Program-made: the position numbers and the translations under genes
Origin: a virus
DNA length: 64,000 nucleotides
Reading direction: 5' to 3' (one strand)
IMG/VR virus record: IMGVR_UViG_3300017527_000515
Span: 51,458-115,457 of that record
The notes under the pieces: model-generated
What the model saw: only the letters and a program-made list of their open reading frames with translations
What the model was told of the DNA's origin: nothing
Databases searched by the model: none
Part shown: piece after piece, positions 22,434 through 59,449 of the stretch
Position numbering within the stretch: position 1 is the stretch's first letter
Layout of the letters: every line of letters starts with the position of its first letter

Positions 22434-22435
22434 AT

Positions 22436-22864: not shown

Positions 22865-22873
22865 AATTCCTCC

Positions 22874-23524: not shown

Positions 23525-23569
23525 TTTGTATCCCTCCTGGACGTTCTATTAAACTACAGGTTACTTAAT

Positions 23570-23776: not shown

Positions 23777-23787
23777 TATTTCCCCTC

Positions 23788-24018: not shown

Positions 24019-24029
24019 ACTTGATCTCC

Positions 24030-24332: not shown

Positions 24333-24344
24333 TTATCCTTCTCC

Positions 24345-24953: not shown

Positions 24954-24963
24954 GATTAGCTCC

Positions 24964-25365: not shown

Positions 25366-25973
25366 TATGCATCTCCTTGCTGCTCAACAAAATTTACCTG
25401 CATGATAACACCAGGTTTCTTGCCTTGGTCTTTTATTCTATCTACATTAGGCTGGTTCTGTGCTCGAGTACTAGTTACCTCTCCTTTCTTTAACACATCA
25501 CCACCGCCCGTCTCAATGGTGGGATCTTCCGGCGTATACGCCAACTTACCGGTTCTGAGGCCAGGCCTAGTGACACTGTTTATTGCCACCCAAGTACCTC
25601 TAGTTGATCTACATCGTCTAGTATATTTCTTACCATCCAATCTAGATAAAATATCATTTCCACTTATGCTCAATATAACAAAGATTGGGTCATCTCTACA
25701 AGGAGTTATATTAGCGGTCCTACATATACCAGTAAATATTAAATTAGCTGGGGAGTCTTGGCCTGCCCTTATAACAACCTGCTTTCCAAAGATATTACCC
25801 ACAGTTCCAGCCCTGACTTTCATAGAAGCTGAGAAGGTAGATATCTGCCCTCTGGATCTATCCACATTAAATGACATTATTATATTATCAGAAGCCATAG
25901 CAGCAGACGGAGTAACAGCTATTAAATTTCCCAGTGTTATAGAAGCCCTGATCTTTACCATTTGTATTGCCAT
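25365..25973 (-). CDS. Putative baseplate/tail hub domain protein
   Basis: IMSFNVDRSRGQISTFSASM...VVIRAG...LIFTG...LSISGND fits the N-terminal barrel of hub (gp27/Tal-like) proteins; second gene after the TMP. Confidence 0.55.
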   Translation of the reverse strand: MAIQMVKIRASITLGNLIAVTPSAAMASDNIIMSFNVDRSRGQISTFSASMKVRAGTVGNIFGKQVVIRAGQDSPANLIFTGICRTANITPCRDDPIFVILSISGNDILSRLDGKKYTRRCRSTRGTWVAINSVTRPGLRTGKLAYTPEDPTIETGGGDVLKKGEVTSTRAQNQPNVDRIKDQGKKPGVIMQVNFVEQQGDA

Positions 25974-25982
25974 AATTTCCTC

Positions 25983-28077: not shown

Positions 28078-31000
28078 TTAACCTACACCAGGTCTTGTAG
28101 CGAAGTTCTGTGCATCTTGTGCGTATCGTCTGGCTTCACCGACTTCATACTGCATACGCCCCTCGAACCTAGTTACTCTGCTGGTTATTTCACTTATGTT
28201 ATTTCTATTAGTATTAATATCATGTGTGACCTGATTCATAGCTTCTGACACTGCGCTTTGTATTTCAGGCTTCACATTATTAGCTGTCAAGGCTTTGGAT
28301 TCTAGGTTAACCATTCTTTCCTCTAATTCTCCCTTGACTGTTATTAGTTTGTCCTGTACATCAACTACTGCGTTAGATATTGAATCTAGGCTGTCTGCTC
28401 CTACAGATCCATTAGCTGATGGATTAACATCTACAGTGGCATTAGCCAGCGCCTGGCTTATAGCATTGGATATTTCCGAAGCTACTCCAGCAGCATCTAC
28501 AGGTACGGTAACGTCGGCAGTATCAACCCTGACCACAGCGCTGTCGGTGTCTACCTTAACTACCGCGCCCTCCAAGTCTACTGGTACCTTAGCATCAGTT
28601 GTATCTACCCTAACTTTAGCGTCAGCTTCTACTTTAACTTCTGATGATTCTATAGCACTCTTAACCTGATCTGCTATCTGACTAGCTACTTCACTACCAT
28701 CTATTTTAACAGTGGTTGAGGTTAAGGATGCTCTAGTCAAATTATCATCTACCATACCGCCCGCCTGGAATCCCTTAGGTAGTATGGTTTCTCCCTTCTG
28801 AGCAAACACCGTACCAGTTTGGGCAACAACTCCACCATTATGCATCACTGGTCTAGATTTATTACTACTAAACGTGTCTTTATAAAACTGTTTAGGTACT
28901 TCGTAGAAACCCTGTTTCATTGCTTCGAACATTCTTCCCAGCTTCTCTCTTGCTGAGAAACCTCGGGTTTCTTTCTCGAAATCTTGTTTACGACCCTGGC
29001 CAGCTATTTTTATCTGGTCTCTTACTGCTCTTAGCTCAGCAGGTTCCAGTTTACCCTTACCGAATCTACCATATAACATAGCCAATGAGTCTACAGTTGC
29101 TGCGTCTTTGGCCATACCGAATTGGTTAGCTATATCCTCAGCATTAATGGCTGCTTTTTCCAACATGGCCTTAGCAGCAGCAGCGCCTACCTCATCCCCT
29201 GCTTCTTTAAGTCTGACATACTCTTTAAATAGATGAGGACTGGCAAGAAATGCCAATCTAGGATCTTTTATTCCATATTTATTCTCATCAACCTTTTTAC
29301 GAACGTCATGGAAATTTTTAGTAAGTTTTATATCCTTCATCAGAGGCTTGATCTTGTTCATGTCTACATTGCCGGACATAACCATAGCTTCTAGACTTTT
29401 TAACTCATCTTGTCTATTAAAGTTTGGATCATTCTCTGATAAATATCTTAACTTATTGTAATATTCATAGGCCAGCTGGGTATCTCTACCTATACCTGCC
29501 GTACCGTATAGATTTTCTAAAACATTACGATCCGGTGCTTGAGGATCTACCTCGCCCTGCATAGCCTTTCTGCTTATACCAGCCACTAGTTGAGCTCTGG
29601 CTACCTTAGCACGTGTATCCTGTAGTTTCTTACCTGGGTTCGCACCTGGGGTGGCCTCGTATCCAGGACCCACCGTTGGAAGCGGTAGTTGCCCTCTGGC
29701 CATAGCTTCTTTTCTTTCTTTATATGCTAATTCATTAAGGTCATATTTAGATTGAACACCGTGGGATAGACCTTCCGCACTAACTATACCGGTTTTAGAA
29801 TCGAACGTATAGTTGAATAGCCCTTTACCCTTAGGTGCTGGTAATATACCAGGCTCTCTCAGTGCGTCATAAACTTCTTTATCCCTCTTAAGAGCTTGTC
29901 TATTCTCGCGTTGTATTGTTTTAGCATGCTCTGCTTGAATCTGGTTATAAACATCCACATTACCAGAAGCCTTTGCCGCAGCAAGTTGTTCTTCGTAGGT
30001 ATGCTTACCTACTAATGCTTTCTCAGCGAACGCCTGCTCATTCAAAGCTGCCAATCTCTTACTTTCTTCCTGAACAGTTAACTCAGCAAATCTAGCAGTA
30101 GGTTGTCCAGCACCAAATGATGGATCTGGGTCTACTATACCTGTATTAACTCTATATGCTTTATTGTTTGCAAAAGTACCTTGATCTCGGCGTGCTGTAG
30201 TCATAGCGTCATCTGGCAAACCACCTACTATGTTACCGTTCTCATCCAGCTCAACTATCTCTCCATTTATCTCGGTGAATCTTCTAGCCAGACCGCCCTC
30301 TGCATACTTCTTACGCTTCATCCTACCGCCCATGCCTTTTTTATCTATAGCATCAAGTATATTAGTCTTGGTGTCTTTACTGGTAAGATAACTAAATGTA
30401 CGGGCATCACTTCCCATTTCAGCAAGTTCTTCTTCTGTAGCTTCTACCTCACGGCCGAAGTAAAATTCTTTAGCAGTCTTAAGCCATTCGCCTATCTGGC
30501 CTATAATACCGCCTTCGGCGTAATGCTTACGCTTCATCCTACCGCCCATGCCTCTAAACTCTGCTGGTTCGGATAAGGCTATACCATACTTATGGTATAT
30601 GTCATTTTTCATATCATCACTGAGTAATTTTCCCGCGCCTATATTACGGAGAAACTCCCCAATTTTTCTTTTTTTCTCATGGCGTTGCTTAAGAGCGTCT
30701 AGTTGTTGTTTTAGTTTTTCCTTTTCTTCTTTAGATCGTACCGGCTCAGTTTTAGGTACGAAAGGTTTTATCTTACCACCATCACCATACTTCTTAATCA
30801 TGCCGCCCATACCCTTACTATCTATGTCACCTGCGGCATCAAGTATATTTTTCTTGGTTTCTTTGCTGGTTAGATAGCTAGTGGCTCGACCGCTTTCGGC
30901 GCCTCTGGCTAAATCTTCCTCACTTACTTCTACATCCCTACCAAAAAAGAAATCCTTTGTTGTCTTTAGCCAATCTTTGATGCGGCCCGCCATTCCGCCT

Positions 31001-34000
31001 TCGGCGAAATGCTTACGCTTCATCATGCCGCCGCCGCCTTTATTGTTGTGCGGGTCTACTGCATCAAGTATGTTCTTTTTAGTATCCTTACTTGTTAAGT
31101 AACTAAATGACCTGGCGTCTTCTGCCATTTCAGCTAGCTCTTCTTCTGTAGCTTCAACTTCGCGGCCAAAATAAAACTCTTTGGCGGTCTTTAGCCAATC
31201 ACCAATCTGGCCCATAATACCGCCCTCAGCAAAACCAGTGAACAATTTAGTATATTCCTCTACTAACGGGCTCTTAATTTCTCCAGCTTTGACTAATTTC
31301 ACAAACTCTGCAAAGTTTTCTCGGCCAAATTTAGAAGCATCTCCTGTGAATCTCTCAGCATATTTAGACACTGGAGGTTGGGCTATAAAACTATCCATGA
31401 AATCCTTCATCTTCTGAAGTCTTTCTTTAGTTAGGGTCTTAGCTATCTCTGGATCATCTATATGTTTACCTATTAATGATGGATCTTTTAAGAATTTCTT
31501 TACAGCTGATTCTGTTACATGGCCTCCTATCTCATGCTCAAATCCGCCCGCTACTACTTTTCTTCTTGATGCTAAATCAGAAGCTTTAGCCAAGCCTCTA
31601 GAAGATGAAACTATATCTTGTCCCTCTTTAAAAGTAGTAGTTAGCTTTTGTCCTTCCTTAGCCTTAGTACTTACCTTTAGATTAGGATTAGTCATAAGAC
31701 CGGCTACAGGATGATTAGATCTAGCTAGTTTAAATTCCTCGTTAAGTATGTCTATATTTTTAGCTAAATCGGCCTTATTGGTTGCTTTACCTACAGACCC
31801 TGATAAATCCACTGCTGTATCTAGAGATTTAAGAGCCTTTCCTGATTTACCTAGATGCTTTATAGACCCAGGTACAAATGGCAGCACTGCTAGACCGGCC
31901 AATCCTCTACTCAAGGGACCCAGTTTCTCATCAGTGATAACATCTATACCAGTTATAGCTTCTTGAGCGCTTTTAACATCACCCACTATAGGGGAAGCGT
32001 CTAATACAGTAGAAGTAGCAAGCTTACCAAAAGACTTTAATTCGTCTTTAGTAGGAGGTCTGTAAATCTCATCATATTCTGCCTTGGTCATAAATGGTTT
32101 TCCTGTAATGGTGCTAACAGGAGCTCCATACGCAGATCTCATTTTGCGGCCTGAAGGACCTACATATAAAGGATTAGTTTCATCATACTCCCTAGAAGAA
32201 ACCAACTTGTCAGGAAATCCTCCGTTAGCCATCCCCGGAGGTAATTGACCTTCCTTATTCATATATTCAAGAGCAGACATTCCTAACTTAGAAGCAGATG
32301 CTGCTTTGATTACATATTCACCTGGGCTTAACATGGCAGGGACCTTGTCTTCTTTAGGACCACCTTCACCGAACACTTTACCGCCCTGAGCTCTGCCCGT
32401 TCTTTTCTCATGCTCAGTTCTTGAGTCTATAGATTTCACATTGAATTTGGGGTCTGTGTACGGGACTTTTTGTATTCTACGAAGTCTTTCCGCCTCGTGT
32501 TGATCATAACCCTTATCCACAAACGCCTGTCTATTAATATCTGGAGCTTTAGATTTAATAACATCCAGCAATGCTTTGATGCCACCATCAATATTATTTA
32601 GAACTGATGTTTGATCAGTCAATACCCCAGTTTGTGCATCAATACTCTGTTTTATTTCCCCCTGACCAGCAGCAGTTTTTTCAGTCTGTACGTTTATAGA
32701 CTGATCCACCTTGTTAAATCCAGTCTTGTTTTCCTCTATTAGTCTTAACCTGGTTTCCTCATGTGCATTAGCTCTTTCTGCCGCGGCCTCTTCTAATTGA
32801 TTTTTATATTCCTGTAGCTGTAATAATTTCTTATTCAGCTCTATTAGCTCAGTTACTCCTTGAGGTGTTCTCCCCTCTTCTATATCTTTTTTATTTAGAC
32901 CTATTATATTCTCTCTTGCTGTCTGTACTGCCTTAATCTTGCTGTCTATAAGAGAAATAATCTTTTGGGTTTCCGCCTGTCTCTGTCTGGCCGCAGCAAT
33001 ATGATCTGGCATCTGTGGACCAACAAAAGATTGCTCGGCTGGTGTATAACTTCTTAAATATTTTAAGGCCTCTGACTCGTAAGCAAAACCACCGCCTTGT
33101 AGCCCTGGTAGTTTACCATACTTATTTATGTATTCTAAATTCTTACGACCTAATTTAGCTGCAGATGCTTGGTTTATTACGAATTCTCCAGAGCTAAGCA
33201 TGGCCATTATGTTATCATCTTTTGGTCCACCTGGTCCGAATATAGCTCCGCCAGCGGCCTTTTTAATAGCCGAATCAACCACCTTCACTTCTAAAGGATC
33301 TCCTAACTTGCTTATCATCTGTTCCATATAACCGGCTACAGATGTAAGACCTTCTTTTGATCCTCTGGTACTTTCTGCTATACTAGATAGATGGTCTATC
33401 ATTAGCTCTTGATTAGATGCTAGACCCATCTTCTGGAATTCTTTTCCGTACTGTTCTTTTAAGGAATTCTTTAAGCCTTCGAATTTACTGGTTAACTCAT
33501 CAATTTGCTCTACAGTTATACCCCTACGTTCTTTCTTACCCTCAGCATTTATTATCTCATCGGGGGCCGCCTTTAGAAACGCACCGGCCTGTTCTTGTAT
33601 AGCTTTAGCAGTTGCTTTGAGTTCTGGAGACACATTATTGTTTCTAGTTATACGTTCTAGATCAGTCATAAGTGTTAGGACTGGATCAGTTTGTCTCTTA
33701 AATCTCTCATCCTGTTTTTGCTGCTCTTTAGCGCGAGCTTCGCCTTCGTATTTAGAATCTAGAGACAGATAACGCTGCAGCAACTCAGACGTTTGGCCTT
33801 GCTGCTGCATGGCTCGGAGGATCTCTGCTTCCTCAACGTTTCTTCTGGTGTCAAATTCCTTTAGGTTAATTCCACCTCTGGCTGCCTCTAATCTAGTGGC
33901 TGGGTCTACAAGCTGTAATGCGTCTGCTCCACTTCCGCCAAGAAATTTATCTGTTTTAGCTCTGAACTCTTTAATACTAGCTAATTCATCTATAGCGTCC

Positions 34001-37000: not shown

Positions 37001-40000
37001 CCAAACTCTCCGGTTTGAAAATTAAACCCTCTCTGACCTTGTAGTGCTGTGGTTGTGGATATATCACTATAGAATCTAGCACCTAGATCAAAATCTTTCT
37101 TGAATGCTTTCTCGTCTAAACCTACTATACCGGCAGCGGCTCCTGTTACAAAGGTACTTAAGTTCTCTAATCTGTTTTCTAATTCTGACTGTACTCTACC
37201 AGCAGGGAATATGGCTTCTACCATATCTGCTACTTCGTCAATAGATTTGGTTTCTAACTCGCCGACACCTTCTTTGGCTTTATAATTATAATAGGTAACA
37301 AAAGCTTCTAGAACCCCGTCTACATTCTTCTTTACCTCTACTACACCCTGCTGACCAGCTATACCTGCTCTGGCTGCGGGCTGAGTTAAGAATGTTACTA
37401 TGTCGCCGGTAACTAATTTAGTTCCTTTCTTGGCCTCTTTTTGTATTATACCAGATCCTTCCAATAGCGCCTTAGTAATATCCTTAGCGGCGCCTATAAC
37501 AGCTCTTCTTGTAGGAAATACCTGTTGTAATATAGTAGCCCCTTGCAAGTCTCTACCTTGTATCTCTGGAAGATTTAGAAACTCAGGGAAGTTTATAGTT
37601 GATCTACCACCTGCTGCAGTAGGATCAAACAGTGTAGATGTGCCCTTGGGAGCATTTGGAAATTTAAGTGCTCTCTCTAACTCTCTTTGGGCATTTGCCG
37701 CATTTATAACTGGATCTACTTCCACAGCAAACTGGAAGCCCCTAAGTAGTTCCGGGTCTCCTAGTAATCTAGCTATAGTATCTCTATCTACAGCTGAAGC
37801 TCCTGGAAATTTGAATATACCAGCTAGAGTTTTATTAAAATCCTTAGCTGTACCATCATATATTTTTTTAAGTTTTCCTAAAGCATCTTGTAGAGTAGAT
37901 ATATCTTCATCAAACGCTGTAGACAGTGGATTCTGTGATCTGGCCAACAGAAGATCATTTAACCTGCCGGTTAGCATCTCCATTTGTTTAGCTGGAGAAA
38001 CCTTAACTATATCTTTTAATAAAGGACCGAATCCTGGTACTTCCCCTAAAGCAGTGCCTAATATATTCTTTATCGATTCCCCAAAATCTACCTTAGTTAG
38101 ATCCTGAGTGAATCTCTTCAATACATCTATATCAGTCTTGGCCAGTTCCAAAGCGCTGGCTCTTTGTAGGTTAGCTATATATTCTTTATAGTCGCCAGAT
38201 AGTTTAAGTATAGCGTTACCTTGTTTATCATAACTCAACACTAGCTCATTATTTACCATGGCTAGTTCGTTAGCCCACTTGGTAGCATCTTTTTGTATAT
38301 CACCTAATGCTATTAGAGGATGAGTGTAATTATCTGATGCTTTTCTAACCTCTTTTAACTTAGGATCTGCCTCTACCGCGTTAACTTCTTTTACTTTCTT
38401 TTGTAATCTATCATATTGTCTAGATAGGGTAGTTAAATTCTTAATTTGATCTTCTTGTACTCTTCTGGAATTATATACAGACTGTGCATAATCCTGAGCA
38501 GTCATTCCTGTTTCTTGTATTCTACTTGCGAGTTCCTTGAAAGCCGGAATTAATGCTCCTACTGTTATAGCCATAGGAGTTATAGCCTTAAGCAATCCTG
38601 GATCAGTATCACCTATAAATTTAGCAAACTGAGCACCAGCTTCTCCGAAGTACTTACCGAATAATTCAAATGCTCTGCCTGAATTTTTAGCTACCTCCTC
38701 CATCACATTTATTACAGCTATAGTAAGATCGTCTTTCCATCCAGGTATCTTAGTAGCAAGTAGTTGTCCTACATCAGTGAATAAATCAGTGCGCTCGGCC
38801 CATTTCTTAACTTCGTCACCTAGCCCTTCTATTGTTTTACCCATCTCCTCGGCAGAAGTTCCTCCGGCAGCTGCCCATGTGTTAAACGCCATACCAGCTT
38901 CTTTGATTACGTATGTTAATTTTCCAAAACCAGAATGTAGATCATCTAAACCAGCAGCCTTTAGAGCATCCGGGACGCCTTTAGCAAAAGACTTTATACC
39001 TTCTAACTGAGGTCCTCCTTTGCCTCCGAAAATCTCAAAGGCAGATATGTCGAACTCTTTAGATACAGATCTAACAAAAGCGTCTATTACTCCTTTACCC
39101 TTACCAAATACTTCCACTAACTTATCAAATATATCCACTCCCTTAGCAGCATAACCAAAGAATAATGTAAGCGCTGCACCGGCAGCTTTAACCGGGGTAG
39201 GTATAGCGGACATGAATTCGAATACGGTCTTAAGAGCTTTAAGTCCACCCTTGAACACTGGGAATATAAACTTACCAAGCTCCATCTTCAGCTCAGTAGC
39301 AGCTGCTCTGGTTTGCTCTAACTGTTTAGCGTACGTTTTCATAATCTCAACGTTACGTCTTTCAGCCGAGCCCTTAGAGTTAGTACTGTCCTCTATGGCG
39401 TCCAGTACCTCATCCCAATTATCCATAGCAACCAACAGTGCGTTATACTGTCGGGTGCCACCTAGAGATTGTGCTACATTAAGTTTTTGGGCATTAGTAA
39501 GCATAGCCCACTGTTTGGACAGATCAGATAAAATATCAAAACCACGTCTATTCTCGCCGGTTGCTGTTATAGTAGGAATACCTATTTCTCCAAGAGCCTT
39601 AGGACCCTTTTCCGAGAATAAACGACGGGCAATGAATCTCATCGCCGTACCGACTTCCTTACCAGACTGTCTGGTTACAGAACCGATACCAGCCACAATA
39701 CCATTTAACTCATTGAATGTGAAACCAGCATTCTTGGCTGCTGCAGCAGACTTCTTGATAGCGTTGGCCATATCAGCAGCGGTAATAGCGTGTCTGGCCT
39801 CAGTTTCACTCCAAGCGTCTAGTGCCATATCCGCTGATCCCATCTCAGTTCCGAATGATTTCATGGCAGCAGTTAGTGCCTCTGTAGCTTCTGAGGCTGA
39901 CAGTGTAGAAACGTTAGCTGCTAGAGTAGAAACTCTTGTTCTTTCTATAACTTCTGATTGTTTTAAACCTTGTTGTGCAAAGATCTTCATACCACGAAGA

Positions 40001-43000
40001 ACTTCATTTATACTAACTCCGTATTCTTTTGCGAACATTACAGCAGACTGAGTTAGAGCATCAAAGTCAGCTTCTAGTGGGTTCATAACCATACGAAGCT
40101 GTGCTATACTAACTTCTATGTCAGCCAATTCACCTACTGAATCCTTAAGTTGTTGTACCCCACCATATACTAAGGTAGCTGCAGCTCCCCACATAATAAC
40201 ACGTCTGGCAGCAGATCTAAATGTTCCGCCTGCCATGTGCATCTTATCTATAAGGTCTGTAGTTCTATGGGTGTAATTCTCAACTTTACCAGCTGTATCA
40301 TCAGTGGTCTCGCCGAACTTTTTAAAGTCGTGTCTGAAATTTCTTAGAACATTGCCAGCAGAGTCTGTCACCTTCTCAAAATAACTAAAGGATTCTCCCA
40401 CTCTGGGACCAGTTCCTGGTGTGTCTGACTCAGGACCAGGCCTTTCGGCAAATTGTTTAAATTTCTCTATATTTCTTCTATGTAATGCTTGCTGTTGGTT
40501 AGGAGGTAAGAAAGTAGGAACCTTAACAGCGCCAGTCTCATACTCTCCGAAGGCTCCGCGCTGTAACCTACCTAGGTCTATCTTTCCGTATACCTGCTCT
40601 ATTTGTTTTAGATATTGTAGTAGAGATCTAACCTGAAATTTCTTCTCTACGTCTGTCTGGAATTCGTCTGATAAATTAAACCTAGAATACTGAGATAATG
40701 CTTCTCTTAGTACCCTAGCCCTCTTAGCTACCTTTTCAAAATCCCATGCCTCTGTAGCATCTCTCCCCTTTCTCTCGAAAAGATCTACATCCATCAGCAC
40801 TCTCTTGGCAGCTTCATCCACGTCAGCTAGTTCATCTACTAGCTTTCTAATCTCTTCGGCCGGGGCCCCTAAGCCTCCAGCTTCAAGTTTATCTATTAAG
40901 TTTTTATATATACCCCTGGTGCGCTCGTCGCCCTCACCAAAAGGTTGTTTGGTTTTTTTATACAGATCTTCCGGTGTCTGGAATACCCCAGCCTGTTTAG
41001 CTAGATCTGGTAGTAAGAATCTTCTGTCTTTGGTATATATGTCTGTAGTTTTACCTAGACTCTTAACTATAAACTCACGTGATTTCTCCACTCTCTTTCT
41101 GAAGTCAGAAAACTCTCTTGTAGCAGGGCCCTGAGCGTTTGCTACATCGAATACCTCTTCTGCCTGTTTGGCCTGGAAAATAAGAAAATCACCCATAGAT
41201 ATACGCCAAAGCTGCCACGCCTTCATAGATTCTTGGAAGGTTATGTAGTCTCCTTCTACTAACTCAGTCAGTAATTTAGAGAACTGTGGGCCTGTGGGTG
41301 GAGCTTCCCCTGCTCCGCCAGAGAGAGCAGATTTAATATCAGTGTGCATCTTCTCTATGTTTTCATTAAAATTTAGATCACTTAAACCAGACTGTATGGC
41401 TATAGACCCCTGATGTAGCTCTGAGATAGCAGCTAGCTGATCTTTAAGAGGATCAGGAAATTTCTTTACCTTATCTTTACCTAAAGTTCTTTCTTCTGGA
41501 GTACCGCCAGTAATCTTTTCTCCGAACGTAGCTCTACCGTATTCAGGATCTTCCTTCATAGCCTGGCCAATATCTTTAGCTCTATTCTCGGCCGCTTTAA
41601 AGTTAGCTCTGGTTTCTTTGTACACCCCTTCTTTGCCTTCCATGAACTCAAAGGCTTTCCTAGAAAGTTGTACGTACTCCTCTATGAATTCATCTGATTG
41701 CTCAGTAACTCCATAGATCTTATCTAACTCTTGTTCTAATAGGTAAGATTTTAGATTTCTAGCTTTGGAGAATGCCGGAGATTTACCACTAACTCTCTTA
41801 CGTAGTTTACTAACGAGGTCTTGGTGTTCCTCTGGTACATCTTCTATACTGGTAGATAAATCTAGTACATAGTTATTTACTAGTTCTCTAGCTGTCTTCA
41901 GTGTCTCTAGATCTGACTTCAGTCTTTCTGGGTCGAAGCCGAATGTTACTGATTTAGCGGGTGTGGTTAGACCAGCATCTTCAGAAGGTATAAAGTCTAT
42001 AGATGCTTGGACTCCTGGAGCAGCCTGTCCTGACTGCACAAGAGCGCCTAGATATACATTAAGCTGAGATCTATAGTCCTCTAGCTTCTGTCTAATATGT
42101 TCTGGTATTTCTTTATCTAATATATCTGCTAGGGCTATGGTACCTTCTGGTCCTATGGCTCTAGATATACTTTCAAATTTAGCGAAGGTCTCACCGGTAG
42201 TTTTAATATCAGATATTTTTTCTACCTGACCTTGTGCGTTTTTATAGGCTACATCAATGAAGCCAGTGATGGGACCTCTGACTCCCTCAACAAACTCTTT
42301 AGGCTTCAGGTATACAAATTTTTCTATCTCTACCTCTCCACCTCTACCAGCAGCCTCAGCCTCATCCTTAATTTTCTTCTGCATTTTTGCATGGAGAGCT
42401 GTACCAATATCGAATGCTGATTGTACATAATCACTCTTTAGCTCTTCTGCATCAAGTCCTAACAACTGTCCTGTGATGGCTTCTAGTTGAGACCCCTGAC
42501 GGTTGCCCTTTATCAGTTCTCCTAAGTCTGCGCCGCCACCTTTAAACTTACTAGCAGTAAATACATTATTCAGATTTGTAAAAAATTGTTTTTTAAGTTG
42601 ATTATATTCTTGTTCTAAATTAACATCAGCTCCCCTAGGACCTACTTCTACTCCTGGGAAGTATTTCTTCTGTAATTTATCGAACTCAGGTTTACCTATG
42701 TTCTCAGAGTGTCTATCAAAATCACTTGATATTTTTTTATAATCTTTTAGCTGTGATTGTAGGCTTCTTATCGAAGCTTCGCCATGCTGATCGTGTTGAT
42801 CTCTAATCTCCGACAGTGCTGATTTTGTTTGTTGCTGTGGGGCAAAGTCAGGATTAAGCTGGTCGGTATAATCTCTTCTGGCGCCAGTACCACCGCCGCC
42901 GCCAAAGAACACTCCCACACCTTGGGCTACACTGTGTATATGTACTGGAACTACTCCTCCAGTCATAGGGAATTGTCCGCCGACACCGCCTCCACCAAAT

Positions 43001-46000
43001 ATAGTACCAGAACCTCCCGGACCGTGTATGCCCTTAGCTTCTTCTCTCATAGCCTGGCCCTGGATAGCAGCGGCCTGCATGTCCTGGGAGAATTTATAGC
43101 TTCTAGCACTTTGTCCAGTGGCCTTAGGTCTGGAAAGATCACTGGCTTCTGGAAATAACGATAGAGTTGTTATACCTTCCTTGGCTCTAGTAGATAAGAC
43201 ATCTAATATCCTATCCATTTCGTAAACTATTTCAGCTTTGGCTGCCAGCTCCTGGGCATAACTCTCAGCTGCTACTTCTACTTCTTCTTTATTAAAATCT
43301 GGATCTTTAGAAAGTAGCTTTTCTCCATGCTTTCTAAAATCCTTCAATAGCTTCTCAGAAACATCTATCTTCTCTTCCCTAGTCAACGTGGGAACTCCCA
43401 CAAGATCAGCCAGTTTTTCTATCTCTTTAATCTGATCTTCTGGAGCCTTTTTTAATATATCTCTAGTAAGACTAGGTAATTCTTCCTCTAGTAGAACTCT
43501 GCTTTTTAGAGCATCTAGACTTCTGTCGACTTTGGTTATATCAAATCCTTCAGCTTGAAGCTTCTTAAACTCATCGTCTATTAGTAATTGGTCTCTATGG
43601 ATATTATCCAGAGTACTCTTGACTAATTGAGAATAAGCTCCAGCATCTAAACCTTCAGCAGCTTCAGCTATAGCGTCTTGTATGTTTCTAGCAGTAGCCT
43701 TGGCTTGTTTATATTTCTTTAATAATTCCTCTTGCTCTTTAGGTTTCTTTCTTAAGAATTGTACACCTTGAGGCACAGTAGGTTCCCCATACCTCTCCGT
43801 GAATCTCTTTTCTTGTCCCTTAAGATTAGATTCCTGACGTGTTATATATAATGGTAGATTAGGAACTGTGATATGTTCACGTACATTGATACCACCTGCT
43901 GCTATTTCTTCTTGTATAAGATTTTTAGCATAAGATTTAGGATCTCCTATCTGCGCACGCTTATCTGGGGATAGCTTTTCTATATTCCTTAGAATACCTT
44001 CCATGGCGCCTTCTCTTACCTGGTCTGCCATTTCGCGGAAGAATGATTCTAAACCAGTAGCCTTGACTGCCATGTCAATCAGCTCGTCTCTATCAGCTCT
44101 GCTCAAATCGAAGGAGCTATACTCAGTACCTCTAGCTTCATAAAGTTGCTCTAGTTCTTTTCGTATAGTAGAGGTATCCATCTTACCAAGTCTTAGCTTG
44201 GTAGACTTATTAACTGCCGCTTCAAAGTCTGCTATCTCACCCTCTGGGAGTAAGGAAGCCCATAGTTCAGTTACCCCATCATACCCTTGTGCTATACGGC
44301 TTTGTATTTCACCGGCTATGGTAGACCCACCAGCATGCTTAACATCCATACCCTTCTGGATGGCAAACCTAAATACCTCATTAAATTTGGTATAAAAGTC
44401 TCTGGCTATCTCATCCTGGCTGCCGCCTAATATTCCTAGATTAGGATTACGGCCAGAGAAGCCCTCACTGGGTTTAAATTCAGCCCCTCCAGTACCTAAC
44501 AGACCAGAACCGAATCCAACACTAGATTCTGCTAATCTATTAAGTCTGTACAGAGCTTCTGTTTCAATACCTGTATGAATCTTAAATAATTGGGCCTCTA
44601 CCGCATCCCTGTATTTAGATTCGAAAAGCCTGCTTCTGACTGCTGCCTGGATCTCATCTACAAAAGTGGTACCCATAGCAGTGTCTAACTCTTCTATAGC
44701 TTTATATATATCCTCAACAAAGCTTACTCTTTTTTCTATACCGCCTTGTTGTTTAACCGCCTTAAGCTCACTAGCTACATCGCCGAATGGAGATTCTACA
44801 TCTCCTACCTGTTTTAGTAGTACGTCTCTGCTGGAACTAGATAGTATAGTATCCTGTATTATACCTTTTAGTACCTCATTAATGCCTTCTACACCTGTAC
44901 CACCTAGACCTAAAATACTCAACTGCTCACTAGGAGTAGCATACTCTAATGTAGGAGTCTTTAGGGCAGCTGTGGGATCATCTGGATCTATAGATGCCTG
45001 ACCAGTTAGAAACGGTTTGACTAAGAAATCAAACCCCTTCTCTTTAGGGAATTTCTTATAAAAAGACTCAGCCATTTCTGACAAGATGGCATCACCTGTA
45101 GGTTGTTGGGAACCAAGCGCATCAGCAGTGAATATATCTCTATATACAGATTGTAGGCTATCGTTGAACTCAGCTACACTCTTATGATGTTTGGCTATCT
45201 CCTCTCTAGCTTCTGCAGTTCTAGCAGTATGTACAGCTATTTCATCACCATCGAAGTCCAACTTGGCGGTATGAGCAGCGTACTTTGGAGTAACCTCTGA
45301 CACGGCCCTGGCCAGTTTGTCCATCAAAGCAGATAATTCATCTACTCTGGTTTGATCCACCGGCATATCGTTAGCGTCTGCTTGTCTAAATAACTGCTCA
45401 CGCTGTTCATGTAGACCTTCGATTATCCCTTTAACCGGAGCTATTATATCGTTTAGTTCATCTAGATTTAAGTCTGGCGCGCCTGGAACCACAAACGCAT
45501 TCTTAGCTCTTTCTCCCTGCGTACCAGATAGTAGTTCTGCCTCGTAAGGAACAATAGAAGATACTCCAGTAAATGGATAACGGATAGCCTCCACAAAAGT
45601 TTTAGTTCTTTCTAACTCTTGTGCAGCCAGTTCGGAAAGAGGACCATCATCACCTACCAAATCCTCTAGTCGTTCTCTATAACTTAGTATATCATATAAC
45701 GTACCGTCTATCTTACTAGTCTGAGCACGCGGTCCTTTCTTGCCAAATTGAATCTTCTGCTCAAACTCAGATATAGGCAATTTTTTAGCGGTAACTTCTG
45801 GTATACCTAATTGGTGCTGCCTTAGTACTGGGAATCCAGCCTTACGTTGTTTGGCTATTCTTTTGCCGTGCTTTGTCGAAACAGATTGTATATCATTTAT
45901 AACATCAGCCAGCGTATTGGCCGCATCATCTGGTAGTTCTGATGAAACAGAAGCTAAAGCTTTTTGGAAGTCCGTAAATTCCTGTGTCCTATCCACTATA

Positions 46001-49000
46001 GCATTAGTGGCTTTCTTCATTACAGCTGGGAACTTACGTGAGAATACAGCTGTACCTATAGCACCTTCTTTACCTACCGCGGCCTCAGCCAAACCGTGGA
46101 AATAATCTATCTTGGCTTTCTGTAGGTTATCAAGTGCCTGTTCGTATTTAAATTGTAACTCTGCGTCTACATCAATACCTAATTTAGCTGCTAGTTCTAG
46201 GCCTTGACCCTTCTGTACATCAGCAGCTAAGCGATACAGTTTCTTCTCAGTGACTGCCATCTCGTTAGCCATGAGTTTGTGCTTATCTTGAAGTGCCGCT
46301 AGTAGATCATTAGGGTCATCAGTAGCTCTACTCTTGAATCTGGAGTCACTCTCTAATACTTTCTTGAACATAGCTATGTTGTCAAACTCACCTTGTTGTA
46401 TTTCAGCTATGCCTTTTACTACAGTATTATATGTCTCTTGTGCTGACGGTCCTTTACCTATTAATAAGTCAGATGCTCTACCTATAGCTGTAGCTAAGGC
46501 AGCCTGCTCTGATTTAGTGCCTAATTGTTTTTGTAGAAATTGCTGTACGTTCTCGAACTCTGTTGGCCCTCTTCTTACTTCTTCGCCGTCTATTATCCTA
46601 GCCGGAGCCTCAGTCTTAGATAGAGCGTTAGTTAGAGTATCAAATATCTTTCTGAGATCAGCCGGTGCTTCTGGAGACTTTGAGTATCTAAGATTTTGAG
46701 CCTGTTTCAACATCTCCGCTACTTCTTCGAACACTCTTTTCTGTACAGTAGTAGCCAACTCACCCTTACCGGTTAGTAGATCGCTTTGGGCTGACTGTCT
46801 AGACAGAAGCTCTGCTTGCTTTTCTGCTGCTCTAGGATCTCCAACTCGGAGCATCTCGTTGAGCTCCATCTCCAGTTTTTCTATGTCAGCTTGTAGAGTG
46901 GCCGGTCTATCTAATAACTCTTTGGCCTTCTTGGCCATATTAACCACGTGCTGTAGTCTACGACCTATATTTTCTACACCTCGCTCTCCGCCTATCAGTT
47001 CCTCTGCGTAAGTACCTCTTGCTAAAGCTCCTGGTACATAGAAAGGCTCGCTCTCTCCAGCCTGACCACCTACCTTAGGTATGTCAAGGAAGAAAGGTTT
47101 GGAGAATTTCTTAGTATCAAATATAGTATCTTTAAGGGTACGCGGATCTGTTTCATCAGCTTTTTCGCTAAGAATACCAGTAGTTTGGTCAAAGTACTTA
47201 ACGGAGCTCAGGGTTACCTTATCAAGAACATTTATCTGTCTTTGTTGTAGCGTACCTGTCTCATCAGCCATGAACTGTAGGGCCTTTAAGAACTCCAATT
47301 GTTTTCTCTGATTGGCGTTGGTAGAGCTCGTGATTTCATCAATTAAAGCAGACTGCTCTCCGAATACAGTAGAGTACGCTGACAATACTGGTATATCCAC
47401 ACTGGCGCCCTTTATACCTCTACGCACATCTTCTTTGCGCCACGGCTCGGTTTCCCCCGTCTCCTGTACAATAGATAGGAACTTAGTACCTACTATACTC
47501 TTACGTCTCTCACCAAATTCATCTATAACAGTGGAATAGTAATTAGACATAGCCTCTAGAGCTTTAGCTCGTTCAGCTATGATCATTTCCATCTGGCGTT
47601 TTTCTTCTTCTGTGTCTCCTGAGGCTTTAGATTTAGCTAGGGCAGCGGCTAATTGTTTTATCTTATCAGTATCACCGACGGTTTCAAAACCTAAAGCGCT
47701 TGATACCTGGCTAAGCTCACCTGCCTTACCGCCACCACCTAATAATCTCTCGTACTGATTTTGGGAGAATTTGGTAGGTAGTGTAGTGAATCCCCGTTCA
47801 CCAACGTCTGTTATGTTACCAAGTACTGCCTCTAGAACTTCAGGCTGTAGACCACGTTTACCTATACCGACTGAACTTATTCTAACATCGATGGCTTTTT
47901 CTTTTACTAATGCCCCACCTATCTCATCTGTAAATAATTTCTTTATTTGTTTGATTCCAGTTACATCATCTGCTAAGCCGGTCTCGCCGCCTGCCAGCTG
48001 TCTACCTGTAATTGCCTGGAATGCTTCGGCTGCTTTCTTGAAAACTCCAGCCTGTTGTGCCTGCTCTTCTGGTACTACTATAGCAGTTTTAGCGTCTCTA
48101 AATAGGTCCAGTATGAATTTATTACCAGACGCTGTTAGCATTTTCTTCAGTATAGCTACATCAAAACCCTCTGATGTCAGCTTCTTTTCATACTTATCTA
48201 CTACCTCTGCCAGAAGCTCTCCCATGCTCCTAGGCAACACTGCCACACCTAGGCCAGCCTTCTGTCTCTCCTCATCAGTAAGGACCTTGACTTTAGCTTT
48301 TGGGAATGCCTGTAGAATTTTACCTATCTCAGTAGCTTCGCCTTCTTCTAACCCTCCAGGAGAAACACTTACCCCCTTAGATCCGTATCGGGATGTGAAC
48401 TTTCTACCGAAGGAGTTTAGGAATACCTCTGTCAATCTGGCTTGCTGTACCTCTACCTCCTCACCGCGGACTACAGTAATAGCACGTTGAATCTCATCTA
48501 TGAAAGCCTGGTCGGCTCTACCTTTATATTGTTCTGGTACACCGAGCACCTCTTGGATTTTGTCCAACACAACTGCAATATCTTTATCTTTTATTGGTCC
48601 TGCTTGTAGATCACTAACCCCAGGCGCAGTTTCCAACCCACCACGGATTCTACCTCCGGGGGCTGGTCTTACTAATGTTTTAGTTATAGTAGTCAGCGCT
48701 TTAGCCAAATTACCAGACACTAGAATCTGATCTTCCATTGTACCGGCAGTATGGCGTAGTTCTGTAAGAACATTAAAACCATAACCCTTTGTGCCTAATC
48801 GTCCTGCAGATATCAGTTCGGATTCCCTCTCAGATCTTAGAGCTGGAAATTCAGTCCCTATACCTTCAAGAGTTGTGGCTTTAAATTCCTTTGCTAGTCT
48901 GTCTAACTCTGTCTTGGATGAGGATATAGCATTGGTAACACCAGCTATATTCCTACCAGTCTGAGTAAATTGAGCTCCGAACGGAGCAAGTTCAGGAAGG

Positions 49001-52373: not shown

Positions 52374-53393
52374 CTATCTCTTCCGGCGACGCGCTTTCTT
52401 TTTAACAGCGGTCTTGTCCTTGATCATCTGTGCTTCTCTTGGCGTGGTGTAATCTATGTCCTCATAAAGTTCATGAGACTTAGTTACGATAACTTCTTCT
52501 TTGTTAAATGCTGATAACTTACCTTTGTTGCCATGTCTATTTTTATCTCTCTCGGCTGCGTCCTCTCTAGTCCTTTCCTCGTAATACGATTTCATATACG
52601 CATCGAGAGCGTCATCGTCTTCGACGATGGTGTCTGGCGGTCTATCCTTTGGCATCATTTCATACACGTTCTGATAGAAATTAGACCAGTACGCCAGATT
52701 TAACATGTCATTTGTATATTGTGATGTCGGCACACCAAATAATGGGTCCGACACCTTCTGACTTGTAACATAACGTATCCTCCACAAGCTATGTCGTGCC
52801 AGATATCTTATTGTCTTAGTATCTATACCTGATCTAAACCTTAGAAACTTTGTTAGTACTACATCTCTGAAGGCTAAATCATTTTCTTTCAGTAAGTCCT
52901 CAAAAGTTTCCCAACATTTGTTGCCTTCTTCGTCTTCTACACATGCCCAACAAAAATATAAAGCTCGTTCCTCTTCAGCCTTGCTTTCTGCTGACATTAT
53001 GAGCTTCGACGTTCTTTTATATTCTAAAGTGAGGATCTGCTCATCAATCTTGGTTATAATTTTCTTAACCCTGTCCTGATTAGCTTTAACCTTAGTAGTC
53101 TTACTAAGGATCACCTCTTGGGCTTCTTTCTGAATCCTAAGTTGATCTAATTTATCTTGATCCTCCTCAGTGAATATATTTCTTTCCCTGATTAGAACCT
53201 CAAGATCTTCTATAGGCAACATACCGGACTCTACGGCTCTTTTATAAGCTTTATCATATATAAGGTCTGCCTTTGCTTTAAGCTCGTTGTCGGGCTGTCT
53301 AATAAACAACAGGCGGCCTTCTAAATTGAGCAGCTCAGTGCCGGTAAATATCCGAGTTAGATATCGTTCAACGTCTTCAGACTTTAATTCCAT
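52374..53393 (-). CDS. Tail assembly chaperone-like protein 2 (339 aa)
   Basis: Immediately upstream of the TMP; helical; N-terminal ~190 aa paralogous to 53393..54172. Confidence 0.65.
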   Translation of the reverse strand: MELKSEDVERYLTRIFTGTELLNLEGRLLFIRQPDNELKAKADLIYDKAYKRAVESGMLPIEDLEVLIRERNIFTEEDQDKLDQLRIQKEAQEVILSKTTKVKANQDRVKKIITKIDEQILTLEYKRTSKLIMSAESKAEEERALYFCWACVEDEEGNKCWETFEDLLKENDLAFRDVVLTKFLRFRSGIDTKTIRYLARHSLWRIRYVTSQKVSDPLFGVPTSQYTNDMLNLAYWSNFYQNVYEMMPKDRPPDTIVEDDDALDAYMKSYYEERTREDAAERDKNRHGNKGKLSAFNKEEVIVTKSHELYEDIDYTTPREAQMIKDKTAVKKKARRRKR

Positions 53394-54172
53394 TATTCAG
53401 AAGTCTCTTCCTTTTTAGTAGTTTTCTTGGCTGCAGTTTTCTTGGCTGTAGTCTTACTTTTTCTGGGCGCTCGTTTCTTAGGAGCAGGCTTCTTTTCAAC
53501 TTTAGCCTTCTCCTCTTCTTCTACAGCTTCAAGAGCTTTGGCTGCTTCAGCAGCTTTTTCTAAGATGTCTGTTTCAACCTCTTTCATGGCCTGTGCTTCC
53601 GGTGTTTTTTCCAGGAAGTCAGATTCCAATCCTTGGAGGTACAACATGATTTCAAAGCGTGCTTTAAGTGCCAGGGCTTGATTCTTCTCTCTAAGATAAT
53701 CTTCATAACTATCCCAGACCTTCTCGCCCTTACTGTCAACTACCATACAGGAAGTTAGATATTCTAATCTGGCGTCATCGGCTAGCTGTTCACATGTATT
53801 AGCCATAGGACCATTAAGGCGCTGGTTCCACTGAAACAATTCATCCCTTGCCTCAGCTACTTCCACCGCCAAATCACGTTTATCATCCATAGCTTCCGCG
53901 GTATCTAGGGCCCAGATCTTTTCATTGAGCTGGTTGGTTAGTTCCTGAGCTCTCTGTTCAAACTCGGGGCCAATAATACCTCTACGACGTAAGATGTCCA
54001 TCATCTCAGCACTCGTAGTGATCCCCTCAGTTAGGGATCTAGTAAATGTCCTACTATAGTTCCAGTCCGCTTCCCTAATGTCGTTGGCATTAGGAGCTAC
54101 GACATGGTACTCCTTCTGATCCGGTCCGAGGAAAGTCCTCTTCTCAACATCTTTCTTTTCTTCGTCTGCCAT
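53393..54172 (-). CDS. Tail assembly chaperone-like protein 1 (259 aa) with a Lys/Ala-rich tail
   Basis: Lies between the tube and TMP genes; GGAGG RBS; acidic helical body; KKPAPKK..AKKTAAKKTTKK C-terminus. Confidence 0.65.
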   Translation of the reverse strand: MADEEKKDVEKRTFLGPDQKEYHVVAPNANDIREADWNYSRTFTRSLTEGITTSAEMMDILRRRGIIGPEFEQRAQELTNQLNEKIWALDTAEAMDDKRDLAVEVAEARDELFQWNQRLNGPMANTCEQLADDARLEYLTSCMVVDSKGEKVWDSYEDYLREKNQALALKARFEIMLYLQGLESDFLEKTPEAQAMKEVETDILEKAAEAAKALEAVEEEEKAKVEKKPAPKKRAPRKSKTTAKKTAAKKTTKKEETSE

Positions 54173-54196
54173 TGTATAATCCTCCGTGTCCTTATA

Positions 54197-54445
54197 TTAT
54201 TGTCTCTGGACTCTAATAACGTCTTCAGAGACAGCCTGGTATTCCACTTTATATTGATCATCCATTTTACGATGGATGTTTCTGATACAATTGTTTCCAA
54301 CCCTAAGAATCTTGGATCTTAGAGGTCTAAAGTGGGGTTCGGGACAGGCAACCTGTGCAAAATCCAGCGCCTGTTCAAACATGAATGTAACCTCTTCCTT
54401 TATCAGATCCTTGAGTTTCTGCATATGTTTATCCTCTACTGCCAT
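54197..54445 (-). CDS. Hypothetical protein (82 aa)
   Basis: GGAGG and AGGA upstream of the ATG; in operon orientation. Confidence 0.7.
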   Translation of the reverse strand: MAVEDKHMQKLKDLIKEEVTFMFEQALDFAQVACPEPHFRPLRSKILRVGNNCIRNIHRKMDDQYKVEYQAVSEDVIRVQRQ

Positions 54446-54461
54446 GTCCTATAATCCTCCT

Positions 54462-54499
54462 GTAAATTTAAGGGCGGGGGAAGCTAAGCAACCCCCGCC
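54462..54499 (-). terminator. GC-rich hairpin (terminator or attenuator) after the tail tube gene
   Basis: Minus strand GGCGGGGG-TTGCTTAGCTT-CCCCCGCC, followed by CTTAAATTTAC (weak U-tract). Confidence 0.55.
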
Positions 54500-54512
54500 T
54501 CCTGTGTTCCTA

Positions 54513-56111
54513 TTATCCGTTTCTGCGGATTTTGTTGCCTGACAAGATATCAGCCAGATCAACTTCACCCTTAACAACATACAAGTCATTAGTTGAACGG
54601 AAACCAAAGGTCTGGGTAGCATTCGAGCCCAGATCCAAGGTGTAAGCTTCATCAGTAATCTTCAAATGCTCAACAACGATGGTCTTCAATGGATACTCTT
54701 GATCATCTTCAATGTACGTACCCATCGTACTATTATACCAATAATCCTGACCAATCAGCTCGTTGTCTGCGCCAAGAATCTTACGGTCAGCACCAGTTCC
54801 ACCACCAGCTTCCTCATCAGTCTGAGCGTAAACTTTCACCACTAGTAGAAGATTGTCCTTACCAAACAAGTCGGCAAGATCGATCTCATCTAGGTCGCCA
54901 GATTCAAACTCGGTCAATTTACCAGCAAAACGAGCCCAATGTTCTAGATCGCCAGCTGTAGTATCCATAGTCACTGTGATAGGAATCGGCAGTGTTAATG
55001 GACGGTCATAAGGACCAAGATGACCTAACTCTGTGAGAGCTTCACGGGTAAGATCAGATGTGATTGTAGCAGATGTGAATCTCCATGCTATAGCGTCTTC
55101 CCATCCAGCAGCGTAAGTCTCATCCGGGTCAATCAGGTAAACTTCTACCTGGCCCTGACGAAGAGCTCCTACTGATTCGGGTCTGTCGTCGGCATCTAGA
55201 ATTTCAAAGTATTTATTGCTGGTAGTTGAATCATAAGCATCGGCAGCATAAATAACCTCGACTCTGTCTCCGGCCACAGGCGCGTTAGCACCAGTCGGAA
55301 AATACAAGGTATCTGTGGCTGAATTATACACGTAGTTTTCAGCGTCAGAAGCAACACCAGCTTCAACTTCCATATTCACCGCTTCGCCGACTGTGTTATT
55401 AAACCAAGTGACACCTGGAGCGCCTGACAATGTTCGCCTTAAGAAACCCATAGTACCATCACTCAAATCAACGATGTTTCCACCGTCTGTTGCGATTGTC
55501 ATCTGTGTTTCAGCAGCAACATCCAAATATTCAAAATTTACGAATCTACCATCATTCAATAACCACATCTTCTGGTCTGTTTCAGCACCATAGTTCTCGG
55601 TCGCGTTAGCACCAGTGGTGTAACTAAACTCTAAACTATTAATATAAACCTCATCCATCCACATGGTCTGGTCGATGTTATCGGCCAGTGTACCTAGTGA
55701 ACACTCGTCCTGGACAGGAGCCCATAGCGAAACACCGGTTAAATTACCACACGTAATAGCGAAGTCGGGTAGACCAACACCGTGGTAGTAATCACCTGTC
55801 TCAGCACCGTACTCATCCACAACGGCCAAGTTTGCACCGCTGGAAGTAGGGGCCATCAGCATGTCTCTCTTCTCGCCTGCTGCGACCTGAGCCAGAATAG
55901 CAAGTGTGCGAACATCTCCAAAATCGTTGGTATTCAGCGTAACCGCCACAGCGGGTACGTCGTCGACCACGTCGACAATGTCCAAATGACCAAGCTCGAA
56001 GATATCCTCGGAGGTGAATGTCGTGGTGCTTCCAAGAGACTGGACCCTATAAAGAACCTCACCGTTGCACCATACACTCTGTGATGCATAGATTATTCTA
56101 TTTCTAGCCAT
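54513..56111 (-). CDS. Major tail tube protein with a tandemly duplicated tube fold (532 aa)
   Basis: Lies between the terminator and chaperone/TMP genes. The two halves match: RVQS..EDIFELGHL..VAVTL vs RFTS..EALTELGHL..ITVTM, and YTTGANATENY vs LDLGSNATQTF. Strong RBS and a downstream hairpin. Confidence 0.8.
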   Translation of the reverse strand: MARNRIIYASQSVWCNGEVLYRVQSLGSTTTFTSEDIFELGHLDIVDVVDDVPAVAVTLNTNDFGDVRTLAILAQVAAGEKRDMLMAPTSSGANLAVVDEYGAETGDYYHGVGLPDFAITCGNLTGVSLWAPVQDECSLGTLADNIDQTMWMDEVYINSLEFSYTTGANATENYGAETDQKMWLLNDGRFVNFEYLDVAAETQMTIATDGGNIVDLSDGTMGFLRRTLSGAPGVTWFNNTVGEAVNMEVEAGVASDAENYVYNSATDTLYFPTGANAPVAGDRVEVIYAADAYDSTTSNKYFEILDADDRPESVGALRQGQVEVYLIDPDETYAAGWEDAIAWRFTSATITSDLTREALTELGHLGPYDRPLTLPIPITVTMDTTAGDLEHWARFAGKLTEFESGDLDEIDLADLFGKDNLLLVVKVYAQTDEEAGGGTGADRKILGADNELIGQDYWYNSTMGTYIEDDQEYPLKTIVVEHLKITDEAYTLDLGSNATQTFGFRSTNDLYVVKGEVDLADILSGNKIRRNG

Positions 56112-56237
56112 AATGTCTCAATCCTCCTATGATATTAATTATCTCGGAAAAATTATCAGGTTGGGTTTAAAAATACAAATCAATCCTACATACCATTACC
56201 GGACTGAGGCGGTCTAATAATAGTAGTCCTTTCCCTC

Positions 56238-58446: not shown

Positions 58447-58462
58447 ATTGGATTATCCTCTA

Positions 58463-59437: not shown

Positions 59438-59449
59438 TGTCTATGCCCC

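Follow-up and report, generated by a model that had tools for sequence, protein, structure and literature searches.

The last 64 kb of the 115,457-bp virus contig IMGVR_UViG_3300017527_000515 (positions 51,458 to 115,457 of that IMG/VR record; hereafter the window) carry a giant open reading frame (ORF) for a tape measure protein, the ruler of the phage tail, in which a predicted nuclease lies between RNA polymerase (RNAP) signature motifs and the tape-measure core (Table 1). Sequence conservation and structure prediction together identify amino acids (aa) ~3271–3494 of this protein as a true metal-dependent nuclease domain that belongs to the RecB/Cas4-like branch of the PD-(D/E)XK enzymes and is without an iron–sulfur (Fe-S) cluster, and indicate that the domain is very probably catalytically active. 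A first-pass annotation made from the letters alone had noticed RecB/Cas4-like PD-(D/E)XK motifs at 41880–42420. These are confirmed on the minus strand, the plus strand being closed by stop codons across the same interval, and the predicted fold agrees with them in three fold searches. The giant ORF is uninterrupted and the nuclease motifs are in frame with it; when residue 1 is the TTG at 52323, the interval corresponds to aa 3302–3481. CheckV estimates the contig to be ~40% complete, so the phage is probably much larger than the contig.

Conservation among relatives is the first line of evidence. A search with the RNAP region recovered 68 giant tape measure proteins which, together with earlier matches, make up a set of 73 proteins of at least 4,000 aa. 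A hidden Markov model (HMM) of the domain matches 63 of the 73 (E 1e-31 to 1e-75), in every case downstream of the DFDGD motif of the RNAP region, mostly by 800–900 aa (range ~650–1,200), and in every case ahead of the tape-measure core. These homologues are 23–66% identical to the present copy (median 29%), and eight positions are invariant among them, namely H3311 (62/62), E3334, G3354, D3357, D3372, K3374, Q3420, and Y3424, a pattern that looks like purifying selection on an active site. The catalytic residues are thus intact, as the first-pass annotation had stated, and its numbering of D3372 and K3374 is correct. A loose composite pattern of the motifs with spacing windows (H..E..GxxD..[DE]xK[TS]..QxxxY) matches the protein once, at 3311–3424; the same loose pattern occurs in 10 of 2,000 residue shuffles (0.5%).

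Structure prediction provides the second line. An AlphaFold2 model of a 300-aa segment, built from an 11-sequence alignment of the segment and ten relatives, has a mean predicted local distance difference test score (pLDDT) of 69 and a predicted template modeling score of 0.67, with disordered N- and C-terminal tails and a core (model residues ~70–260) in which pLDDT is mostly 80–95. Its elements follow the order alpha-beta-beta-beta-alpha-...-alpha-beta-beta-alpha. The long helix bearing H3311 leads into strands with E3334, D3357, and D3372/K3374 (the latter two on model strands 111–120 and 126–133), followed by a helical insert, the helix with Q3420 and Y3424, and finally two strands and a helix. 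The predicted layout is that of a classical PD-(D/E)XK enzyme, and the acidic residues and lysine occupy the expected places. The best Foldseek match in the PDB is MGME1 (E 2.8e-4, probability 1.0), and further top matches are EXO5, EndoDinG, Cas4 SSO0001, LHK-Exo, RecE, RecB, AddA, AdnA, and lambda Exo. With VIA-align against 48,161 representative chains, ranks 1–21 are all PD-(D/E)XK nucleases (Z 6.2–10.8), including EndoDinG (9kqh, Z 10.8, root-mean-square deviation 3.5 over 152 residues), Cas4 (7mi4, Z 9.2), LHK-Exo (Z 8.9), lambda Exo (Z 8.1), and RecE (Z 7.9). Among the viral structures of BFVD there are 41 matches at E<=1e-3, and those with names are nearly all phage exonucleases or Cas4-like proteins. 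Both observations on which the first-pass annotation had staked its reading, a predicted fold of this kind and conservation of the catalytic residues among homologs, were examined and found. Conservation and predicted fold together place the assignment to a nuclease domain far beyond chance.

Table 1. Coordinates of the giant tape measure ORF, its domains and motifs, and further nuclease genes (window positions unless another contig is named; aa, residues of the giant ORF)
Feature	Position	Strand	Remarks
Giant ORF, 8,081 aa	28078-52323	-	tape measure protein with RNAP motifs, nuclease, and C-terminal cassettes
Beta-subunit-like RNAP motifs AGTMEDQILVS (aa 1193) and GRKFTSRYGSKGV (aa 1306)	48370-48747	-	motif conservation
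DFDGD, aa 2356-2360	45244-45258	-	metal-binding signature of two-barrel RNA polymerases
Glycine-rich low-complexity linker, aa 3100-3150	42874-43026	-	read from sequence; joins RNAP part and nuclease
Predicted PD-(D/E)XK (RecB/Cas4-like) nuclease domain, aa 3271-3494	41842-42513	-	HMM envelope, E 2.4e-72
Motif I GTALH, aa 3307-3311 (H3311)	42391-42405	-	first long helix (model helix 57-83); H invariant 62/62
E3334, acidic residue in beta-1 (EIEKF)	42322-42324	-	model strand 90-98; invariant 63/63
Motif II GFID, aa 3354-3357 (G3354, D3357)	42253-42264	-	beta-2; G and D invariant 63/63
Motif III DIKT, aa 3372-3375 (D3372, K3374, T3375)	42199-42210	-	beta-3; D and K invariant 63/63; fourth position T/S
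Motif IV QLNVY, aa 3420-3424 (Q3420, Y3424)	42052-42066	-	RecB-family QhxxY helix; Q and Y invariant 63/63
Tape-measure core, aa 3824-4456 (PHROG tape-measure families)	38956-40854	-	phrog_4211 E 5e-81
PhageMin_Tail, PF10145, aa 4096-4289	39457-40038	-	Pfam, E 8e-24
Pre-toxin TG (PT-TG) domain, PF14449, aa 6770-6832	31828-32016	-	E 2.4e-11, above cut-off
Canonical Cas4-like PDDEXK_1 nuclease with CxxCx5C and N-terminal cysteines	outside window, G000:C1:12493-13662	-	E 2.6e-29
Small PDDEXK_15 nuclease	outside window, G000:C1:13640-14032	-	overlaps start of Cas4-like gene
RNase_T exonuclease in relatives	G005:C1:23432-24022; G004:C1:28216-28545	+; -	PF00929

Standard family models miss this whole branch of RecB-like nucleases. 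The HMM comparison with PDDEXK_1 and Cas4 families that the first-pass annotation had proposed largely failed: a Pfam search of the segment gave no PDDEXK_1 (PF12705) match for the present copy at E<=10, and just 3 of 11 relatives gave PDDEXK_1 matches, all sub-threshold (best E 0.0024), though no other Pfam family was matched by more of them. A six-frame search of the genome with PF12705 found a single match, in a stand-alone gene (genome positions 12919–13638, outside the window) and not in the embedded domain, and PF01930 (Cas_Cas4) likewise matched the stand-alone nuclease only, below cut-off. Weaker leads from the segment point in the same direction as the fold: PHROG matches to phrog_1706 (“CRISPR/Cas system associated,” E 1.9e-4) and phrog_1674 (“exonuclease,” E 1.6e-3), and viral PDDEXK_1/Cas4 clusters as the nearest named neighbors in the ESM Atlas (0.94–0.95). 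Sequence searches of the PDB, with the single sequence and with a profile, returned matches to FtsZ, Beclin, and nucleoporins that we rejected as chance.

The branch appears to be confined to giant proteins. Searches of GenBank phages by tblastn with the nuclease and the RNAP region as queries gave no match. An exhaustive phmmer search of 1.8 billion representatives returned 20 matches, all of them giant proteins or their fragments, and a word-indexed profile search returned two, both already in the source alignment of the profile, so that no stand-alone relatives of the domain were found in either. One small protein of 343 aa (P0025), encoded on a 27.7-kb contig, has the nuclease domain and nothing else; it may have come from a giant ORF by splitting or frameshift, or truly stand on its own.

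The neighbors of the domain within the chain agree with the position between RNAP and ruler given by the first-pass annotation, with RNAP signature motifs at aa 1193–1318 and 2356–2360 on one side and tape-measure matches at aa 3824–4456 on the other. Signatures of a two-barrel RNAP and a tape-measure domain (PF10145 and PHROG families) thus occur in one polypeptide. The motifs RYP, DFDGDEIAVH, AGTMEDQILVS, and GRKFTSRYGSKGV are conserved in giants that keep the RNAP region, and we take them to resemble the beta/beta-prime active-site motifs of cellular RNAP. GRK..RYGSKGV is present in 13/13 giants keeping the region and the ED motif in 11/13, and one DxDGD-type motif is present in every giant with that region; in one homolog (P0047) DHDGD replaces DFDGD at the polymerase metal site. 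Prediction of the polymerase fold was poor: an AlphaFold2 model of aa 2150–2750 reached a pLDDT of 51.5, Foldseek with this model gave nothing significant (many of the weak rows being RNAP largest subunits), and the ESM Atlas was uninformative for the region. The closest known parallel is gp96 of Thermus phage P23-45 (5,002 aa), a tape measure protein in which the N-terminal portion has been proven to be a virion RNAP and likewise contains DFDGD (PMC10770324). An hhalign comparison of the RNAP region with gp96 was not significant, and tblastn and hhalign detected no sequence similarity of the giants to gp96. The RNAP assignment in the present protein therefore rests on signature motifs, the fold prediction being poor.

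The first-pass annotation had also remarked on the lack of the Cas4 Fe-S cysteines. None are present in the segment, but this is not special to the domain because the whole 8,081-aa protein is free of cysteine, against 98 expected (P ~1e-43) from the mean of 1.21% in the other 73 ORFs of the contig. The 73 giants together contain 25 cysteines in 522,505 aa, and P23-45 gp96 contains none. Cysteine absence may mark chains that pass unfolded through the tail and an oxidizing periplasm, and it suggests to us that cysteines or a metal cluster are not tolerable in a chain that has to cross tail and cell envelope.

Co-occurrence of nuclease and RNAP, a further point raised in the first-pass annotation, holds for 63 of the 73 giants and fails for the remaining ten, which keep the RNAP region, as well as for P23-45 gp96 judged by sequence. 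In BLAST segment maps these ten proteins are cleanly shortened in the stretch that separates the RNAP part from the tape-measure core, and on a midpoint-rooted FastTree of the RNAP region their absences fall in ~6 separate places, with the domain present on the deepest branches. Domain divergence tracks that of the RNAP region (Mantel r 0.83, reached by 0/999 permutations). Our reading of these sequence comparisons is that the nuclease module is ancestral, vertically inherited, and repeatedly lost, and hence useful yet dispensable. Because ten RNAP-keeping giants are without the domain and none is detectable in gp96, the polymerase has no obligate need of the nuclease, which is a helpful but inessential accessory to the machine.

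The phage encodes two other nucleases outside the window, a canonical Cas4-like protein with a four-cysteine cluster and a small PDDEXK_15 protein, making three PD-(D/E)XK nucleases in one phage. Their genes stand beside glycosyltransferases and near DnaJ, primase, and DnaB genes in the replication module. The motifs of the embedded domain match those of the phage's own PDDEXK_1 protein one by one and in the same order. We rejected close paralogy between the two, as hhalign aligned only the GTALH motif with a probability of 2.8%. Because the phage has separate Cas4-like and PDDEXK_15 nucleases in its replication module, the embedded copy appears to be an extra with a role of its own, and we suggest that its job is a different one from replication and recombination. 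One clade of relatives has a DEDD exonuclease (RNase_T, PF00929) ahead of the polymerase at aa ~380–580 of the giant ORF, giving these giants two nucleases per protein; an RNase_T domain was not found in the present genome. A deep-branching relative (P0084, 7,557 aa) carries, according to precomputed Pfam assignments, helix-hairpin-helix and Pol X/IMS-type DNA-binding families along with a tape-measure domain. Given the RNase_T of one clade and the helix-hairpin-helix and Pol X-type domains of the deep branch, the family seems to collect DNA-handling enzymes.

What the embedded nuclease does can be approached through the protein that carries it. The three roles offered by the first-pass annotation, degradation of host DNA, processing of the incoming genome ends, and production of single-stranded DNA (ssDNA) templates for the adjacent RNAP, are inferences. 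We predict that at infection the tape measure protein would be the first to leave the tail and that a nuclease carried in the virion would thereby arrive in the host envelope or cytoplasm shortly before the DNA. Because the tape measure exits first and the tape-measure-fused RNAP of P23-45 has been proven to be a virion enzyme, the nuclease is probably carried by the virion and delivered, and the phage probably injects it along with a transcription enzyme of its own. At the entry site its targets would be DNA ends or ssDNA. On balance, we lean toward a delivered nuclease that acts on DNA at the site of entry, with processing of the incoming genome's ends (such as 5' resection in the service of early transcription, circularization, or recombination) favored over wholesale degradation of host DNA. 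This role is favored because the only free DNA end at entry would be the leading end of the phage genome, and the closest structural relatives (RecB, AddA, AdnA, Dna2, Cas4-Cas1, and EndoDinG) work on DNA ends or on ssDNA that an attached motor feeds to them.

Several points weigh against end processing at entry. The activity of the domain, its presence in the virion, its ejection, and its substrate are all things that we infer. The embedded domain falls below the curated Pfam thresholds for PDDEXK_1 and Cas_Cas4, and its invariant residues were placed by the order of elements in the model, not by three-dimensional distances. To judge from sequence comparison, the nuclease is required neither for entry nor for polymerase function: ten of the 73 giants keep RNAP and tape-measure core without it, and HMM and motif scans found no PD-(D/E)XK domain in P23-45 gp96. 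An enzyme that cuts the phage's own DNA on its way in would be risky and would need restraint. Finally, the ~3,800 N-terminal residues of each chain need a place in the virion, a point that the authors of the P23-45 study leave open (PMC10770324).

A more tightly coupled version, which we think unlikely, has the nuclease resecting one strand of the leading genome end as it comes out of the tape-measure channel and handing ssDNA to the polymerase, so that genome entry itself would switch on pre-early transcription without host factors and relatives without the domain would open the template in another way. Virion polymerases can have unusual template requirements, that of N4 wanting a single-stranded template. 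The role of template maker stays alive because gp66 of a crAss-like phage transcribes ssDNA or denatured DNA in vitro but not duplex DNA. Alternatively, the delivered nuclease could be a weapon that degrades host chromosome, plasmid, prophage, or co-infecting phage DNA for the purposes of host shut-off, nucleotide scavenging, or competitor exclusion. The invariant catalytic set would suit such a role, as would its setting in a probably ejected polyprotein with a toxin-associated PT-TG domain in the C-terminal region and in a family that collects nucleic-acid enzymes (RNase_T in one clade, helix-hairpin-helix and Pol X-type domains in another member), and the idea of injected multidomain polyvalent proteins is well established (PMC5512222). 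Nevertheless, Cas4, MGME1, EXO5, RecB/AddA, lambda Exo, and RecE need a DNA end or motor-fed ssDNA, and an intact circular chromosome has neither. Long-tailed phages have only a few tape measure chains per virion, which speaks against bulk degradation as well. The repeated loss of the domain fits an accessory role, yet it does not discriminate between a weapon and an end-processing enzyme. We regard a weapon as possible but rather doubtful.

The domain might not be an entry enzyme at all but act in the producer cell during tail or head–tail assembly or packaging, serve as a DNA-binding or structural module in which cutting does not matter, or be cleaved off before assembly. This would be compatible with the presence of the N-terminal half in virions being a prediction, with the expectation that a folded domain of ~25 kDa plus an RNAP would not fit folded in the tail tube, and with two candidate processing sites, the glycine-rich linker at 42874–43026 and an [FY]xAS..K.GG motif (with S3258 and G3263). 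Three observations make these possibilities quite unlikely. Seven catalytic residues are strictly invariant at 23–66% identity, which argues that chemistry and not mere binding has been retained; the avoidance of cysteine along the whole chain, enzyme domains included, suggests one common fate for its parts; and P23-45 virion proteins react with antibodies to the N-terminal 1,050-residue fragment of gp96, which places that part of gp96 in virions (PMC10770324). A partner in RNA processing, trimming or cleaving nascent pre-early transcripts or host RNAs in the manner of the PD-(D/E)XK endonucleases of bunyavirus and influenza polymerases or of Rai1/Dxo, is very improbable, even with an RNA polymerase in the same chain and cap-snatching endonucleases and Rai1/Dom3Z among the weaker fold matches (Z 4.6–5.0). 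The strong fold matches (Z 8–10.8) and the sequence leads are all DNA nucleases of the RecB/Cas4/lambda-Exo type, the QhxxY motif is a hallmark of that DNA-acting branch, and the polymerase persists without the domain in ten relatives. Least credible of all is a selfish mobile nuclease, similar to a homing endonuclease, inserted in frame into the tape measure gene. The patchy distribution on the RNAP tree, with its ~6 separate absences, could be read in this way, but the domain occupies a fixed position, is present on the deepest branches, has absences resembling clean deletions, and has no stand-alone relatives in the searches described above; we rejected mobile insertion on the co-divergence of the domain with the RNAP region.

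Other parts of the giant protein and its surroundings are less readily interpreted. The [FY]xAS..K.GG motif lies at aa ~3255–3264 (42540–42560, minus strand), ~50 aa ahead of the nuclease core, and is well conserved (S3258 in 56/63 and G3263 in 57/63); it or the glycine-rich linker may act as a hinge or be a site of proteolytic processing. Besides the PT-TG domain, the last 1,700 aa of the giant ORF (28753–33263, minus strand) contain repeated cassettes of the K(R/K)xYAEGG type and a HEIGGH motif that is peptidase-like in appearance. Almost all genes adjacent to the tape measure gene (52374–63946, and 14817–28067 on the minus strand) are without a PHROG or Pfam match, the exceptions being a Big_1 Ig-like domain (17864–19255) and a weak tail-fiber match (62660–63946). 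The structural module is therefore essentially unannotated.

Injection of a ruler-fused polymerase has so far been shown for one small group, the Thermus phages. A separate and much larger uncultured lineage, with at least 73 giant proteins on contigs that reach 318 kb, appears to be alike, and most of its members carry a conserved predicted DNA nuclease in the same chain that is unreported in the literature we searched, where no nuclease within a tape measure protein is mentioned. If delivered, this nuclease would be one of the very earliest phage activities that the cell meets, which raises the question of how DNA entry, end processing, and first transcription are coupled. A small cysteine-free domain with an easily inactivated active site also offers a practical entry for biochemistry into phages that have not yet been grown.

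Compared with known systems, the embedded domain shares its predicted core fold with the RecB/Cas4-like nucleases (PDDEXK_1, PF12705; Cas_Cas4, PF01930), solved examples of which include Cas4 SSO0001 (4ic1), Cas4-Cas1-Cas2 (7mi4), the nuclease domains of AddA, AdnA, and RecB, MGME1, EXO5, and EndoDinG (9kqh). It also shares their ordered motifs, comprising the histidine of helix 1, the acid of beta-1, GxxD in beta-2, DxK(T/S) in beta-3, and the QhxxY helix. The differences are ~30 additional residues between DxK and QhxxY and the absence of the Fe-S cysteines found in Cas4, AddB, and EXO5. By the strict criterion of a four-cysteine Fe-S cluster the domain, which sits in a phage structural gene, is not a Cas4, and no CRISPR context is apparent, no search aimed at cas1/cas2 or CRISPR arrays having been made. 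The domain resembles RecB, AddA, AdnA, Dna2, and EndoDinG in being joined to a nucleic-acid motor (PMC13650095), but its fusion partners are a putative RNA polymerase and a tape measure, not a helicase, and in the databases searched its branch is known only inside giant tape measure proteins. Lambda Exo, RecE, and YqaJ have the fold in common with it and are likewise phage-encoded, acting on DNA ends. They are, however, free-standing early proteins paired with an annealing protein, lambda Exo forming a ring of three, whereas the embedded domain is part of a fusion.

The P23-45 group, which also covers P74-26, G20c, and TSP4 (Chaban et al. 2024, PMC10770324), resembles the present giant in placing a DFDGD RNAP ahead of the ruler part of a chain without cysteine. 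The two differ in layout, the gp96 RNAP being at the very N-terminus (DFDGD at 779) and the present DFDGD lying at 2356 behind ~1,100 residues of other sequence. In the model proposed for P23-45, the tape measure makes a pore at which the enzyme is stationed and transcribes the DNA during entry; the paper mentions no nuclease (PMC10770324). The polyvalent proteins of phages and conjugative elements also join several enzymes in one polypeptide and are thought to be delivered with the invading DNA and to act early (Iyer et al. 2017, PMC5512222). That survey contains no occurrence of “tape measure,” “RecB,” or “Cas4,” and the present case differs from the polyvalent proteins in that the carrier is the tail ruler itself.

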